Counted from the first letter of the stretch, positions 14,325 through 61,007 are shown. The stretch is DNA of 64,000 nucleotides from Gemella haemolysans (GCF_032567735.1 NZ_JAWHCX010000011.1); one strand, 5' to 3'. Notes: generated from the letters alone by a model not told the origin. Made by a program: numbers and translations.

Positions 14325-14885
14325 TTATGCGAAACGGCTACGAATACTAGTTGGTATTGATTTGTAAACACTCTTAGTAATGAAGAATAAGAATGTTACT
14401 AAAGCACCTTTAAGTAGGTTGAATGGTATAATACCAGCCGTTACGATTGTTTTTATGTTAGTCACGATATCAGCTAAGTTCATGATATATCCATACGCTG
14501 GAAGTAACACGAAGTAGTTAAGTAGTGACATGAATAATGTAATTGCTAGTGTTCCTAAAATACCACCGATAATAGTTTTAGCAGTACCTTTTTTGTAGAA
14601 AAGTACGATAATACTAATGAAAGTAAATTCAACTACGATATTGGCAATTGATCCGATTGGTTCATGTGATAATAATGCGAAGTGTAGGAAGTTTTTTAAG
14701 AATGACACTAAAAGAGCATCTTTATAACCTAATAATAACAACGCCATGAACAGCGGGATAAACGTGAAATCAAATTTTAGAAATGGTGGCAAGAATGGCA
14801 CAGCAAAACTAAAAAAAGATAGAAGTAGAGCAATAACTGCAAGCATTCCACTTAAAACAAGTGAATGAACATTTTTTTTGTACAT
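14325..14885 (-). CDS. ribU: ECF-transporter S component, riboflavin-specific (RibU-like)
   Basis: 186 aa polytopic membrane protein similar by eye to B. subtilis RibU/FmnP (..FP.LP.FLK.DF...P......LG...). It lies directly downstream of an FMN riboswitch. Confidence 0.75.
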   Translation of the reverse strand: MYKKNVHSLVLSGMLAVIALLLSFFSFAVPFLPPFLKFDFTFIPLFMALLLLGYKDALLVSFLKNFLHFALLSHEPIGSIANIVVEFTFISIIVLFYKKGTAKTIIGGILGTLAITLFMSLLNYFVLLPAYGYIMNLADIVTNIKTIVTAGIIPFNLLKGALVTFLFFITKSVYKSIPTSIRSRFA

Positions 14886-15094
14886 ATTAAATCCTCTTTC
14901 CTATCTTCATAGGCAAAAAATAACCGCAATATAATTTTTAAAAAGGTGTCTTAAAAATCTATATTAGATATTAAAAACACCACTTTAAAAATTTTAAAGC
15001 GGGACTGAAAGGTATGAAAAATAAGCGTTGCACAATACATTGTATGACAAATATACATATGTAGTAAGGTTATATGTGCAAGTTTATTAATTCT

Positions 15095-15205
15095 ATATCT
15101 TCTATCATCCAGACTGTACTGTCGGTTTTGGAATTTCACCAAATCAGCTTACGCTCGCGGACTTTAACCGCCGGTCGGGAATTTCACCCTGCCCCGAAGA
15201 TAATT
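15095..15205 (-). promoter_or_regulatory. FMN riboswitch (RFN element) controlling ribU
   Basis: The minus strand reads CUUCGGGGCAGGGUGAAAUUCCCGACCGGCGGUUAAAGUCCGCGAGCGUAAGCUGAUUUGGUGAAAUUCCAAAACCGACAGUACAGUCUGGAUGAUAGAAG. All conserved RFN blocks are present. Confidence 0.9.
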
Positions 15206-15327: not shown

Positions 15328-17130
15328 TTATTCTACTGTTACTGATTTAGCTAAGTTACGTGGTTTATCCACATCTAAACCTTTAGTGTAAGCTGCATAG
15401 TATGCGAATAATTGTGTAACAACGATACTTGCGATTGGAGCAAGATCTTCGTTTACGTTAGGAATCGCATAGTCACCTTCACGTGCTAATTTTTCTAATG
15501 TAATGATTAGAGTATTAGCTCCACGGCTAGCTACTTCACTTACGTTACTACGTGTATTTAAGTCTAGTTTTGCACTTGTGATAAGAGCTACAACTGGTGT
15601 TCTTTCTTCGATAAGAGCGATTGTACCGTGTTTTAATTCTCCTCCGGCAAATCCTTCTGTTTGAATATAAGAAACTTCTTTAAGTTTTAAAGCTGCTTCA
15701 CATGCACTATAGTAGTCGATTCCACGCCCAATATAGAATGCATTACGTTCAGTGAATAAGTTTTTAGCTAAGTCTTTGATAGTTTTTGTATCATCTAAGA
15801 TTGATTCTATTGCTGAAGTAATTACTGATAATTCTTGCTCGATATCGAATTTAGGTTGTCTTGAAAGTTGTTTTGCTACTTCGTAAGCTAGTATACTTAA
15901 TGTTGCGATTTGAGCAGTATATGCTTTAGTAGATGCAACTGCGATTTCAACACCTGCATGAAGTAATAATGTATAGTCACATTCACGAGATAGAGTTGAA
16001 GCATCAACGTTAGTAAGTACTAAGAATTTATAATCTTCATTTACACTACGTAATTTCGTTAGTACTGCACGAAGGTCAGCTGTTTCTCCTGATTGAGAAA
16101 GGAAGATGAACATTGGTTTTTTCGATAATAATGGTACATTGTAAGCAAATTCTGATGCTAAGTGTACTTCTGTTGGGATACCAGCCCATTTTTCGAAGTA
16201 GTTTCTTCCTACTAAACCAGCGTTATAACTTGTACCACATCCGATAATGTATAATCTATCAGCATCTTTTACATTGTTAATAATGTCGCTATTAATATTA
16301 ACATCGTGTCCATCGAAGTAGTGAGAGATGATGTTACGCATAGCTCCTACTTGCTCATGAATTTCTTTAATCATGTAATGTTCGTGGATACCTTTATCGA
16401 TTTCTCCAGCATTTAAGTTAGTAGAGAAACTTTCGCGCTCTATGACATTACCTTCTTTATCTTCTATAGTTACACTATCTTTTTTCACGATAACAAATTC
16501 ACCATCGTTAATTTCTAAGAAGTTGTTAGTGTACTTAATCATTGCTAAAGCATCACTACCAACATAGTTTTTGTTTTCTTCTCCTAGTCCGATAAGTAGA
16601 GGACTCTTATTTTTTGCTACATATAATGTATCTTTATCTTCTGTGTCGATTAAACAAAGTGCATAAGATCCTTGTAATTTAGATACAGCTTTTTTGAAAG
16701 CTTCTTTAGTGTCAAGACCACGATCGCTATAAACTTGTACTAATTGAACGATAACTTCAGTGTCAGTTTCAGAAACAAGTTCTACACCTTTGAAAAATCT
16801 TTCTTTAAGTTCTTGGAAGTTTTCGATAACTCCGTTATGAACTAAAATAAAACGTTTGTTGAAGCTTTGGTGAGGGTGAGAGTTAGTTGTGTTAACTCCA
16901 CCGTGAGTAGCCCAACGTGTATGACCAATACCTAATTCTAGGTGAAGACCTTCAGGTATTAAGGCTTCTAAATTTTTAATACGACCTACAGACTTAGTAA
17001 CACTAGCCTCTCCGTTAACAACACCAGCAATACCAGCTGAGTCGTATCCTCGGTACTCAAGACTACTTAGTCCATCAATTAAAAATTTAACTCCATTTGC
17101 TTCTCCAACAAATCCTACAATTCCACACAT
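15328..17130 (-). CDS. glmS: Glutamine--fructose-6-phosphate aminotransferase
   Basis: 600 aa. N-terminal MCGIVG nucleophile, two SIS domains and a C-terminal ..KPRNLAKSVTVE. Confidence 0.95.
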   Translation of the reverse strand: MCGIVGFVGEANGVKFLIDGLSSLEYRGYDSAGIAGVVNGEASVTKSVGRIKNLEALIPEGLHLELGIGHTRWATHGGVNTTNSHPHQSFNKRFILVHNGVIENFQELKERFFKGVELVSETDTEVIVQLVQVYSDRGLDTKEAFKKAVSKLQGSYALCLIDTEDKDTLYVAKNKSPLLIGLGEENKNYVGSDALAMIKYTNNFLEINDGEFVIVKKDSVTIEDKEGNVIERESFSTNLNAGEIDKGIHEHYMIKEIHEQVGAMRNIISHYFDGHDVNINSDIINNVKDADRLYIIGCGTSYNAGLVGRNYFEKWAGIPTEVHLASEFAYNVPLLSKKPMFIFLSQSGETADLRAVLTKLRSVNEDYKFLVLTNVDASTLSRECDYTLLLHAGVEIAVASTKAYTAQIATLSILAYEVAKQLSRQPKFDIEQELSVITSAIESILDDTKTIKDLAKNLFTERNAFYIGRGIDYYSACEAALKLKEVSYIQTEGFAGGELKHGTIALIEERTPVVALITSAKLDLNTRSNVSEVASRGANTLIITLEKLAREGDYAIPNVNEDLAPIASIVVTQLFAYYAAYTKGLDVDKPRNLAKSVTVE

Positions 17131-17382
17131 ATAAAAAATTCCTCGCTTTTTTCTTTATTTAATTTAATTGTCGTCTCATAGAAAGTACTATGAAAATTAT
17201 ATTCACTCAAAATTATTATACTTCATAAAGTTTATGTAAACTTTAAAGGAAGCATTATGAGTCTAATAGAGAGAGGATAATGATTTTAAGGGTTCTTATA
17301 TCTAATACTGCACTCCTCCGCTGTAGCTATGAGTTACTCAAAATATAAGGAATGTAATGATGAAATATTTTGTTAGTAGCCA

Positions 17383-17668
17383 CTGTAAGTATCTTGTCGT
17401 CACTGTGTTCCTAAAGATACTAAGGTACACCCCAGCAGTGGCAACTAAAGTTTTTTACGTCATTATTCCTAAAAACTAAGTTGCTGTTGCATACGCTATA
17501 TCTAAATATTTCGTCGTCTCTTCGTTCCTAGAAATATTAAGATCTACCCCAGCAGTGGCAACTAAAGTTTTTCGCGTCATTCTTCCTTAAAAACTAAGTT
17601 GCTGTTGCATACGCTGTACCTAAGTATCTTGTCGTCACTGTGTTCCTAAAGATACTAAGGTACATCCC
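17383..17668 (-). repeat. 2.5 tandem copies of a ~115-nt two-hairpin module in the glmS leader
   Basis: The units are 17383-17495, 17496-17613 and a partial third at 17614-17668. Each is built from hairpin A (15-bp stem, loop UAGGAAC-N6-GACGAC in the glmS sense) and hairpin B (flanks CGUAUGCAACA / ACUGCUGGGG). Confidence 0.85.
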
Positions 17669-17788
17669 ATTGTACATTATCTAACGAAACTCTCTGGTTC
17701 CGAAAAAGCATCCGCCGAATTTTCGATAACTTTTTTCCTCGTCAACTAAGCTCAATTTAACCTTTAGAACTTAGTTCGGGCGCTATAA
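17660..17788 (-). promoter_or_regulatory. glmS ribozyme / GlcN6P riboswitch (core; the 3' peripheral domain may extend into the repeat)
   Basis: The minus strand reads UAUAGCGCCCGAACUAAGUUCUAAAGGUUAAAUUGAGCUUAGUUGACGAGGAAAAAAGUUAUCGAAAAUUCGGCGGAUGCUUUUUCGG. This matches the conserved glmS ribozyme core, including the A/GCGCC cleavage site. Confidence 0.85.
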
Positions 17789-17832
17789 TTATAAATTCAA
17801 ATTACCTCCTAATATTTTTGATCGTACATACT

Positions 17833-17861
17833 ATTATACTAGATGAAAAGGGCGTTGTAAA
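17833..17861 (-). promoter_or_regulatory. Candidate sigma-A promoter of the glmS leader
   Basis: Minus strand reads TTTACA, a 17-nt spacer, then TATAAT. The -10 ends about 45 nt upstream of the ribozyme cleavage site. Confidence 0.55.
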
Positions 17862-17956: not shown

Positions 17957-17992
17957 ATAAAAAAACCTACTTACTTTTACAGTAAGTAGGTT
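17957..17992 (-). terminator. Terminator of the lipoprotein gene 18002-18802
   Basis: AACCTACTTACT-5 nt-AGTAAGTAGGTT, followed on the minus strand by TTTTTTTATT. Confidence 0.75.
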
Positions 17993-18001
17993 TTAATGTT
18001 A

Positions 18002-45316: not shown

Positions 45317-45492
45317 AAGGGAGTGACTCAAAAATCATGATTTCGGAGAAATAAGATTTTGTAGAGTTACCCCCGCACAGTTTATTAGATATCTAAAAAG
45401 CTTTTATAAAGTGAATTTAGATATCAATAAACCACTGCGTCTATGAATTATCATATACACTTTTTTAAAATTTAGGACTTTTGGGTCAGCCC
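45317..45492 (+). repeat. ~170-nt multi-hairpin MITE-like intergenic repeat, copy A
   Basis: GGGAGTGACTCAAAAATC...CCCCCGCACAGTTTATTAGATATC...GATATCAATAAACCACTGCGTCTATGAA...GGACTTTTGGGTCAGCCC. It aligns by eye with the reverse complements of copies B and C. Confidence 0.8.
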
Positions 45493-55059: not shown

Positions 55060-55229
55060 GGCTGAGCAAAAAAGTCCTAAAATTTAACAAAGTTTGTATT
55101 AGAATTCATAGACGCAGTGGTTTATTGACATCCAAATTCGCTTTAAAAGCTTTTTGGATGTCTAATAAACTGTGCGAGGGTGACTCGACAAAATCGATTT
55201 CTACGAAATAACGATTTTTGAGTCACTCC
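55060..55229 (-). repeat. MITE-like repeat, copy B (inverted relative to copy A), abutting the pepF stop codon
   Basis: The reverse complement reads GGAGTGACTCAAAAATCG...CCCTCGCACAGTTTATTAGACATCC...GGATGTCAATAAACCACTGCGTCTATGAATTC...GGACTTTTTTGCTCAGCC. Confidence 0.8.
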
Positions 55230-58497: not shown

Positions 58498-58673
58498 GAA
58501 GCAGATTCAAAAGTTCTAAATTTTAACAAAGTGTATATGGAAACTCATAGACGCAGTGGTTTATAGATATCTAAAATCGCTTTAGAAAAGCTTTTTAGAT
58601 ATCTAATAAACTGTGCGGGGGTGACTCGACAAAATCTTGTTTTTTAAGAAATCACGATTTTTGAGTCACTCCC
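58498..58673 (-). repeat. MITE-like repeat, copy C (same orientation as B), ~125 nt upstream of cdaA
   Basis: ...CATAGACGCAGTGGTTTATAGATATCTAAAATCGCTTTAGAAAAGCTTTTTAGATATCTAATAAACTGTGCGGGGGTGACTCGACAAAATC...GATTTTTGAGTCACTCCC. Confidence 0.8.
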
Positions 58674-60849: not shown

Positions 60850-61007
60850 GGGGGAAGATTTGGAAACCTGATTAGAATTCGCGTTTTCAAATCACCCCCG
60901 CAAAGTTTATTAGATAAGTAAAAGCTATTACTTCGTAGTGTATTTATTTGTAAACTATTGCGACATAGTATGTAGTTAAGTTTTATCTTGATTATATAAA
61001 TTAACCC
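60850..61007 (+). repeat. Diverged member (copy D) of the MITE-like repeat family
   Basis: GGGGAAGATTTGGAAA...TTTTCAAATCACCCCCGCAAAGTTTATTAGATAAG...TTTGTAAACTATTGCGACATAG...AACCCC. It has the same module order as copy A. Confidence 0.55.

Follow-up and report, generated by a model that had tools for sequence, protein, structure and literature searches.

The tandem repeat in the leader of the Gemella haemolysans glmS gene is nested in the glmS ribozyme, occupies a single locus, varies in copy number, contains hairpin A stems that are constrained, and is flanked by strands under strong purifying selection. Comparison of sequences makes it probable that the repeat is a recombination-driven, structure-constrained expansion segment, variable in unit number, of the ribozyme's peripheral domain in the G. 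haemolysans group. Riboswitches and small ribozymes are usually regarded as nearly invariant within a species, and the glmS ribozyme, a self-cleaving RNA switch of a gene for cell-wall precursors, is an antibiotic target; a conserved, well-studied ribozyme hosting a fast-evolving tandem repeat within its folded architecture is unusual. A literature search returned no account of glmS together with Gemella or with an insertion or repeat in P4.1, although surveys of glmS diversity may contain an earlier mention.

The glmS locus and its leader

Positions are those of the window, the whole 64,000-nt stretch of DNA analysed. The glmS gene (15328-17130) and the Rfam ribozyme match are both on the minus strand, so the repeat is read on that strand, and features of the leader are given here in RNA sense:

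17833 to 17861, minus: promoter-like site TTTACA-17-TATAAT ahead of the ribozyme, agreeing with the consensus at 11 of 12 positions
17267 to 17795, minus: full glmS ribozyme as reassigned here (core, P3, P3.1, P4, IL4, and P4.1 with its insert), from the Rfam match, P4 and P3.1 covariation, and compact relatives
17783 to 17784, minus: putative self-cleavage site, between A and GCGCC (Rfam alignment position and sequence, by homology to characterised glmS ribozymes)
17685 to 17702, minus: P3 hairpin CGGAAC/GUUUCG (94% of cells paired), with the loop CAGAGA as 5' strand of the P3.1 pseudoknot
17675 to 17681, minus: P4 5' strand GAUAAUG, pairing with 17282-17276
17669 to 17674, minus: IL4 5' side UACAAU, aligned with the Rfam consensus 'uauAAAa' in compact relatives and near-invariant in about 40 leaders
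17664 to 17668, minus: P4.1 base 5' strand GGGAU (GGGGU in most strains), pairing with ACCCU 17293-17289 in unconstrained folds
17289 to 17293, minus: P4.1 base 3' strand ACCCU, single copy; (A)CCCUU is little changed in array-bearing leaders
17283 to 17288, minus: IL4 3' side UAAAAU (CAAAAU in most strains), homologous to the Rfam consensus 'gACAaAGu' and conserved in every lineage
17276 to 17282, minus: P4 3' strand CAUUAUC, supported by P4 covariation
17267 to 17272, minus: P3.1 pseudoknot 3' strand UCUCUA (79% of cells paired, three pairs changed on both sides)
15328 to 17130, minus: glmS coding sequence, 600 aa (ORF list; Pfam GATase and SIS domains)

In the genome scan, the window GlmS was 96-99% identical to GlmS of G. 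haemolysans isolates and of many uncultured Gemella MAGs; in a protein search the protein itself came solely from metagenome assemblies, with Gemelliphila palaticanis as the nearest named homologue (81% identity). The identities from the genome scan place the window in the G. haemolysans group. The glmS ORF begins 136 nt past the P3.1 tail on the minus strand, and the ribozyme is its same-strand 5' leader. A terminator-like hairpin at 17962-17994 closes the upstream gene, and the promoter-like site comes after it. Another promoter-like site is found at 17240-17212. Between 17130 and 17960 there is no intrinsic terminator or attenuator (a G+C-rich stem with a U run); the stems of hairpins A and B are A+U-rich, and are followed by GGGGU or AGCG, not by a U run. 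The only match to another Rfam family in the leader is a chance one to OxyS (E up to 5). A small ORF starting from a GUG in the hairpin loop was considered and rejected, since it is not conserved and the GUG is missing in A2; a plus-strand ORF inside the repeat (17357-17479) has merely 40 aa.

An array nested inside the ribozyme

The ribozyme matches Rfam RF00234 at 17646-17795 on the minus strand with 82.8 bits (E 1.6e-17; gathering threshold 37 bits), within the range of 78-95 bits seen in relatives. Aligned to the model consensus, it has AGCGCC at the cleavage site, GACGAGGA, CGAA..UCGGCGGAUG, and helices P1, P2 and P3, and from the cleavage site through P4 the sequence is nearly identical among array-bearing leaders. 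The match stops at 17646, inside the first hairpin of the array (A3), only because a poor local P4, two of its pairs non-canonical, is imposed there by the model. The ribozyme does not end at this local mis-pairing; annotation by covariance model under-calls the element, the match ending about 380 nt before the true 3' end.

The missing 3' strands of P4.1, P4 and P3.1 (17293-17267) lie about 400 nt beyond their 5' partners, and every Gemella relative compared shows the two sets of strands paired, with covariation. P4 is paired in 100% of cells over 15 distinct sequences, with two-sided change at five of its seven pairs across Gemella and Gemelliphila (GUAACA/UGUUAC and GUAGCA/UGCUAC, for example). 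In P3.1 the P3 loop AGAGA pairs with the tail UCUCU, replaced in one leader (L019) by UUAAGAG/CUCUUAA. No shuffle reached the covariation score of P4 or P3.1, and slid partners paired in 18-72% of cells. At the P4.1 base, another leader (L018) has GGAGUA/UACUCU in the same place as GGGGU/ACCCU. Unconstrained folds of 17268-17690, and of a simpler allele (L033), close P4 and GGG/CCC around the entire insert while keeping the local hairpins.

Both borders of the insert are shared. Just ahead of the first hairpin A, the block GUUAGAUAAUGUACAAUGGGGU has single-base variants only in all leaders, and after the last module the block (A)CCCUUCAAAAUCAUUAUC..CUCUCU is common to all; over about 40 distinct leaders these strands hardly change, around a hypervariable interior. 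Compact relatives, namely Gemelliphila palaticanis, Gemella sp. zg-570, one further Gemella isolate and one metagenome lineage, have a conventional P4/IL4/P4.1/IL4/P4/tail order that the Rfam model aligns residue by residue, with strands homologous to both flanking blocks of the array leaders. Their P4.1 has no GNRA loop and is 0 (L077), 4 (L075 and L076) or 7 bp long (L024).

Pairing of P4 and P3.1 across the insert, together with this homology, sets the extent of the ribozyme at about 17795-17267. A sequence-only reading of the window had described the array as a module in the glmS leader abutting the ribozyme core; since the 3' strands of P4.1, P4 and P3.1 come after it, the array is nested inside the ribozyme. 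The same reading fared better in proposing that the partial third unit is the ribozyme's own 3' peripheral domain: a hairpin A stands exactly at the P4.1 position of the compact relatives. The array and a non-repeated 92-nt piece replace the P4.1 tip. P4, an A-rich IL4 and P3.1 are all found, and by sequence, position and peripheral helices the element classes as a glmS ribozyme with an unusual P4.1: the base GGGAU/ACCCU is present, and in place of a short, tetraloop-capped tip docking on P1 there is a 375-nt insert. The short capped P4.1 is itself variable within the glmS family, and is not needed for membership.

Units of the array

Tandem Repeats Finder reports a repeat at 17386-17669 (period 117, 2.4 copies, 81% matches, score 426), and a repeat search of the window found three copies at intervals of 117 and 118 nt. 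Within the 64 kb the loop pattern GTCGTCNCTNNGTTCCTA (three times) and a hairpin B 26-mer (twice) are seen in this array alone, counts that were not equalled in any of 100 shuffles. Together these bear out the two-hairpin tandem array proposed from sequence. Its units run head to tail and differ in number among strains, as in a variable-number tandem repeat, and a hairpin A covariance model run over the whole window with filters off had matches solely at 17385-17663. In RNA sense the order is A3-B2-A2-B1-A1, with R1 denoting the covariance model:

17616 to 17663, minus: hairpin A3, complete and of stem type 1, opening the P4.1 insert (R1 73.3 bits)
17551 to 17615, minus: hairpin B2 (R1, built from A copies only, 22.7 bits, E 0.0075)
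17546 to 17550, minus: internal GGGGU linker, identical in sequence to the consensus P4.1 5' strand
17498 to 17545, minus: hairpin A2, stem type 2 (R1 72.2 bits; five two-sided changes against A1/A3)
17434 to 17497, minus: hairpin B1 (R1 29.5 bits, E 1.4e-4)
17429 to 17433, minus: second internal GGGGU linker (sequence)
17386 to 17428, minus: hairpin A1, of stem type 1, its 3' arm cut short after CUUA (R1 56.6 bits)
17294 to 17385, minus: module C, the non-repeated 92-nt rest of the P4.1 insert, found in some of the strains and in certain cases holding more inserts nested in it

Module A is 48 nt long and module B about 65 nt, and GGGGU precedes every A copy in every locus. Folded as single sequences, A3 reaches -17.0 kcal/mol (z -4.7) and A2 -7.5 (z -1.6), B2 -14.3 (z -1.0) and B1 -14.1 (z -1.6); A3 is the exception, the z-scores of A2, A1, B1 and B2 being unremarkable. 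Module C has no significant fold of its own (z 0.05).

Most details of the stems given in the sequence-only reading were confirmed. A1 and A3 have the stem GUACCUUAGUAUCUU/AAGAUACUUAGGUAC and A2 has AGAUCUUAAUAUUUC/GAAAUAUUUAGAUAU; the five changes said to affect both sides are transitions at pairs 1, 4, 9, 13 and 15, the single uncompensated change is at pair 2 (U-A to G.A), and the retained U-U mismatch is at pair 7. Two counts needed correction. The loop is indeed 18 nt long, with five rather than six variable positions in its spacer (UAGGAAC-N5-GACGAC), and A1 is indeed shortened at its base, by 5 nt of the 3' arm (GGUAC replaced by CAGUG) and not by four. The A1 junction, where CUUA meets CAGUGGCUAC, recurs in many strains.

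Covariation in hairpin A

Selection on the structure of hairpin A, proposed from the three copies in the window, is upheld by stem covariation in 53 distinct copies from 60 loci. In this alignment of the 15-pair stem, 84% of cells are paired, against 32-52% with slid partners, and changes on both sides are seen at six of the 15 pairs, with pair 9-40 found as AU, GC and CG. The covariation score was not reached by any of 500 shuffles, a control that ignores relatedness. RNAalifold also found the stem in 30 full-length copies (-8.1 kcal/mol, four covarying pairs); on all 53, truncated and chimeric copies included, it returned no consensus structure.

Stem variation consists of about four or five types common to several strains, so that the independent events are few (at least seven two-sided changes). 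These events are older than the array in the window. The difference between A1 and A2 did not originate here: it is one between two old stem types that are present in many strains and have been shuffled by recombination. Some hairpins are chimeric, joining the 5' arm of one type to the 3' arm of another, and since such hairpins with mismatched arms survive in some strains, selection for pairing in hairpin A is not absolute.

A different account of the paired arms is that the array is plain satellite DNA, arising by neutral duplication and kept complementary by hairpin-templated repair or conversion. The extreme variability of copy number and order between close strains is what would be expected of a satellite, as are the chimeric and truncated copies. 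When both strands were folded, as the sequence-only reading had suggested, they did so about equally well (z -3.5 and -4.3), and the excess of G.U over A.C cells in A stems is a small strand bias (22 against 13). Conversion of one arm by the other would, however, erase the U.U at pair 7, which is retained in 43 of 44 distinct A copies. The U.G pairs of type 3 stems would be C.A on the opposite strand, and the hairpin A model scores 57-73 bits on the RNA-sense strand against 21-25 bits on the other; these pairs, the G.U excess and the gap in score all favour the RNA-sense strand. The array is also transcribed as part of a ribozyme in which strong purifying selection acts on the strands to either side. 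On all these counts plain satellite DNA is very unlikely.

A function for the opposite strand was considered and rejected, on the same gap in score (21-25 against 57-73 bits) and on the weakness of the promoter-like matches inside the array (9 of 12).

The apical motif and hairpin B

The 18-nt loop of hairpin A is probably not open. In minimum-free-energy folds its cap is a short helix with a G-C pair, a 2x2 G.A/A.G loop, A-U and C-G pairs, and a triloop on top, so that the predicted structure would be a short helix with tandem sheared G.A/A.G pairs and a variable triloop cap. The apical AGGAAC...GACG motif is unchanged across A copies, and 13 of the 18 loop positions never vary, even between stem types that are unlike at as many as one third of stem positions; a motif fixed while the stems drift would follow from such a cap. 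Hairpin B has the same G-C, GA.AG, A-U arrangement, with AGGAA in every module, and in both A and B sequence variation is restricted to the tri- or tetraloop and the 3' linker. A and B are homologous, since a model made from A copies alone detects B (E 1e-4 and 7.5e-3).

Covariation could be assessed for hairpin A only, the stems of hairpin B being nearly invariant, too conserved for a test of pairing; B gives no evidence from covariation. A single B-like hairpin elsewhere in the window (24362-24445) has the B outer frame with two compensated pairs. A K-turn in the loop was rejected on inspection of sequence and MFE folds, since the tandem G.A lies between G-C and A-U pairs and no 3-nt bulge adjoins it. 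Also rejected was the idea that hairpin B with its preceding AUAGCG is a copy of the cleavage site and P1. The resemblance (AUAGCG..CAACUUAGUU..AAGG against AUAGCGCCCGAACUAAGUU..AAAGG) is by eye only: the local alignment scores 17 against 15.6 +/- 2.3 for shuffles, 564 of 2000 of which are equal or better. This likeness is not significant, and with it went the notion that the CUUAG arms might be decoys for the P1 5' strand.

That the loop motif and the whole of B are so strictly conserved could point to a function that depends on sequence, which a model of the array as purely a tolerated spacer leaves unexplained. One such function would be that of a binding platform, in which a protein or the 30S subunit would specifically recognise the apical AGGAA...UGACG of each hairpin (AGGA is Shine-Dalgarno-like). 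Tandem sites would then control ribozyme folding, or shield the 5'-OH product from RNase J1, with copy number as the dose. A platform would account more readily for the invariance of the cap and of B, drawing on the 13 fixed loop positions, on the occurrence of the same motif in B, and on the confinement of variation to the triloop and linker. An AGGAGG between promoter and cleavage site, retained in most relatives, would fit a leader with ribosome-dependent stability, a link between ribosome binding and stability that is inferred from the STAB-SD and RNase J1 literature. Several observations weigh on the other side, and make a platform decidedly unlikely. There is no candidate protein, and the apical motif matched no Rfam family, even below threshold. 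The bulge needed for a K-turn is lacking by inspection, and AGGAA is a weak Shine-Dalgarno sequence, predicted to be tied up in G.A pairs. Conservation of the loop could also stem in part from crossovers, which would homogenise this, the only long identical stretch.

Distribution and variability among strains

A degenerate hairpin A pattern, scanned over one genome per species (185,579 species), gave 20 stretches, all from Gemella except for one record labelled Streptococcus sp. UMB1385; a hairpin B pattern scanned over JGI metagenomes gave 30. All 50 matched loci lie between a ribozyme core and a glmS start codon, on the same strand. The search for a unit in relatives that the sequence-only reading had called for thus led solely to glmS leaders. 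The hairpin A model has 140 matches in 409 kb of Gemella loci, all at mapped glmS leader positions, and neither the 64-kb window nor these 409 kb contain any A or B copy elsewhere, the B-like frame at 24362-24445 excepted.

Comparison of copy number among strains, also called for there, showed it to be highly variable, which that reading had named as one part of a condition for plain satellite DNA, the other part being the lack of an effect on glmS expression. There are 49 distinct sequences among 60 leaders; the 45 that are distinct and complete comprise 43 array-bearing leaders and two compact relatives without an array. In the 43, the number of A copies is 1-5 and the length of the leader 396-1019 nt. 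The commonest layouts are A-B-A (12 leaders) and A-B-A-B-A (seven, the window among them). The variation includes G. haemolysans isolates. Terminal copies are truncated at recurrent junctions, and hairpins that join arms of different stem types point to recombination breakpoints in the conserved loops.

One leader (L003) equals the window minus exactly 235 nt, or two units. Some copy-number differences in short-read metagenome contigs, such as this one, could be assembly collapse. Arrays of 3-5 units are also found on contigs of 0.2-1.1 Mb (L045 and L063, for example), so the variation is not just a short-read artefact.

Other strains carry a further insert in the same P4.1 region: module D, a dispersed repeat of about 125-140 nt with at least three copies elsewhere in the window. 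Its insertion there makes P4.1 a permissive landing site, and raises the question of whether the array too is a mobile element or dispersed repeat, akin to a MITE, BOX or REP, and came to lie in the glmS leader by chance. The hairpin with a B outer frame at 24362-24445 could be read in the same way, and the modular layout of A and B, with a variable number of B, recalls pneumococcal BOX elements. Copies of A and B are not found at unrelated loci in one genome, however, as those of a dispersed repeat would be; the genome- and metagenome-wide scans gave glmS leaders only, with no other A or B copy in the window or in the 409 kb of Gemella loci. In addition, the first A is always directly behind the P4.1 5' strand, and no terminal inverted repeats or target-site duplication were seen. 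Chance landing of a mobile repeat is hardly to be credited on this evidence.

A model for the origin and maintenance of the array

How might an expansion segment of this kind have arisen, and why would it be tolerated? The GGGGU found ahead of every A copy is the P4.1 5' strand of the consensus, which suggests that the array originated by reiteration of the original P4.1 hairpin. It would then have grown, shrunk and been reshuffled by unequal homologous recombination, with breakpoints in the conserved loops, and this would produce differing copy numbers, chimeric hairpins and truncated terminal copies. Two features may make it tolerable. The P4.1 tip appears to be dispensable in the Gemellaceae, given P4.1 helices of 0, 4 or 7 bp in relatives, and the modules would fold by themselves, letting the distant strands of P4.1, P4 and P3.1 meet. 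A need for the modules to fold locally would account for the compensatory changes in their stems.

Seen as an expansion segment, the array is a natural experiment in the extent and kind of insertion that the peripheral domain of a ribozyme can tolerate. The parts that stay fixed are the strands of P4, IL4 and P3.1, and the apical motif of the modules.

We conjecture that extra units would delay or weaken assembly of the peripheral domain, setting ribozyme efficiency strain by strain, and that they might do so both by lengthening the distance between strands and by supplying internal GGGGU decoys that compete for the single ACCCU. Taken further, the array could be a heritable 'rheostat', in which copy number sets peripheral-domain assembly and hence the level of GlmS and the supply of cell-wall precursors in each strain. 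Each unit would add a GGGGU decoy for ACCCU and move the 3' strands of P4 and P3.1 farther from the core; high-frequency recombination would change the copy number, and the invariant tandem-G.A caps could recruit a protein as a second layer. This extension is, in our view, unlikely. If it were true, the array would be a contingency-type locus working through RNA folding, not through a promoter or reading frame, and if copy number alters cleavage efficiency, it would offer bacteria a new way to vary the expression of an essential gene heritably and reversibly. Since natural alleles of one to five units exist, an effect of copy number is directly testable.

Comparison with known systems

In its core, AGCGCC, P1, P2 to P2.2, P3, P3.1, P4 and A-rich IL4, the Gemella element is like the glmS ribozymes of Bacillus subtilis, B. 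anthracis and T. tengcongensis. In known glmS ribozymes P4.1 is normally a short hairpin; in that of B. subtilis, P1 is where the L4 tetraloop docks, and IL4 is packed against the core (PMC11602151). The Gemella P4.1 tip is instead a multi-hairpin insert of about 375 nt in the window, and of roughly 110-730 nt in other strains. This insert is tandemly repeated and varies from strain to strain, and the Rfam model cannot span it.

Insertion at a helix tip whose base still closes also recalls the expansion segments and intervening sequences of rRNA and the peripheral helices of RNase P RNA and group I introns. Inserts in these RNAs are tolerated since the core architecture is untouched, and are usually fixed within a species. 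The Gemella insert differs in being a variable-number tandem repeat, with dozens of architectures in one species group, and in having a small metabolite-dependent ribozyme as its host.

Modular hairpin units with variable middle modules, embedded in mRNA and evolved by recombination, are shared with the pneumococcal BOX, RUP and SPRITE elements. Pneumococcal BOX has A-B-C modules with a variable number of boxB, and elements of the BOX type are scattered, with copies numbering from tens to hundreds. The A and B modules of Gemella, by contrast, occupy a single locus; module D, a separate element, is alone in behaving like a dispersed repeat.

As a lead, the array is like decoy RNAs of the CsrB/RsmZ type in having tandem hairpins each with a conserved A(N)GGA in the apical region. 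It is unlike them in that it is not a separate sRNA, and in that its GGA is predicted to be paired in the tandem G.A motif.

P4.1 and its expansions in relatives

P4.1 is the peripheral helix of the glmS ribozyme whose tip, in the window, is replaced by the tandem array of hairpin modules A and B. At the glmS locus of one Gemella-related metagenome lineage (L077:1030-1180; GlmS identity 75%), the ribozyme lacks P4.1 entirely, with P4 closing a 16-nt A-rich loop, and still scores 95 bits despite this absence. At two further loci of relatives (L075 and L076) the P4.1 helices are 4-bp, and on these cases the P4.1 tip seems dispensable in Gemellaceae. Another relative (L018:1150-1270; GlmS identity 92%) has neither A nor B hairpins, and carries instead an A+U-rich insert of ~110 nt flanked by the P4.1 strands GGAGUA and UACUCU; expansion at the P4.1 site is thus not restricted to A/B modules.

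The glmS leader in PNGU01000003.1 (L029), deposited as "Streptococcus sp. UMB1385", is of Gemella type with an A-B-A array, and its GlmS is 99% identical to that of the window, so a wrong label or contamination of this record is likely. Two contigs of the MAG ERR9968951_bin.27 (L030 and L040) differ in their glmS leaders and arrays, suggesting that this bin merges two strains.

Signals flanking the ribozyme

17212-17240, minus strand: second promoter-like site, TTTACA-17-AATAAT (10/12 consensus matches)
17805-17810, minus strand: AGGAGG, strong Shine-Dalgarno-like sequence, ~20 nt before the point where the ribozyme cleaves

The promoter-like site lies between the ribozyme end and the glmS start codon, and its TTTACATAAAC portion is kept in other leaders; it could permit ribozyme-independent glmS transcription. 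The AGGAGG falls in the short 5' fragment that ribozyme cleavage takes off, and GGAGG or GGAGA occupies the same place in most relatives (L018, L024, L075, L077). It may stabilise the mRNA from its 5' end as long as cleavage has not occurred.

Other elements in the window

15093-15205, minus strand: FMN riboswitch (121.9 bits), upstream of an ECF-transporter gene (14325-14885)
26116-26226, minus strand: trpB ncRNA motif (68.9 bits), upstream of the ORF at 24848-26056
24362-24445, plus strand: long hairpin (-36.6 kcal/mol, z -8.5)
45319-45443 (minus), 55109-55229 (plus) and 58548-58673 (plus): dispersed repeat
60874-60915: dispersed repeat, partial copy

The first two are ordinary annotations. 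The long hairpin, within a 770-nt gap between convergent ORFs (22761-24074 and 24848-26056), has the outer frame of hairpin B (AGCGUAUGCAACA...ACUGCUGUGGCUAC), with two pairs compensated. Its apical stem, unlike that of B, is a perfect 16-bp helix with a U run after it, which makes the hairpin look terminator-like.

The dispersed repeat is ~125-140 nt long, with the layout CATAGACGCAGTGGTTTATTGATATC...CTGTGCGGGGGTGACTCGACAAAATCGATTTC...TTTTTGAGTCACTCCC and 82-85% identity among copies. In other Gemella strains (L010, L037, L039) it sits within the glmS P4.1 expansion, and it is also present at other loci, away from glmS leaders; in appearance it resembles a MITE- or BOX-type element.
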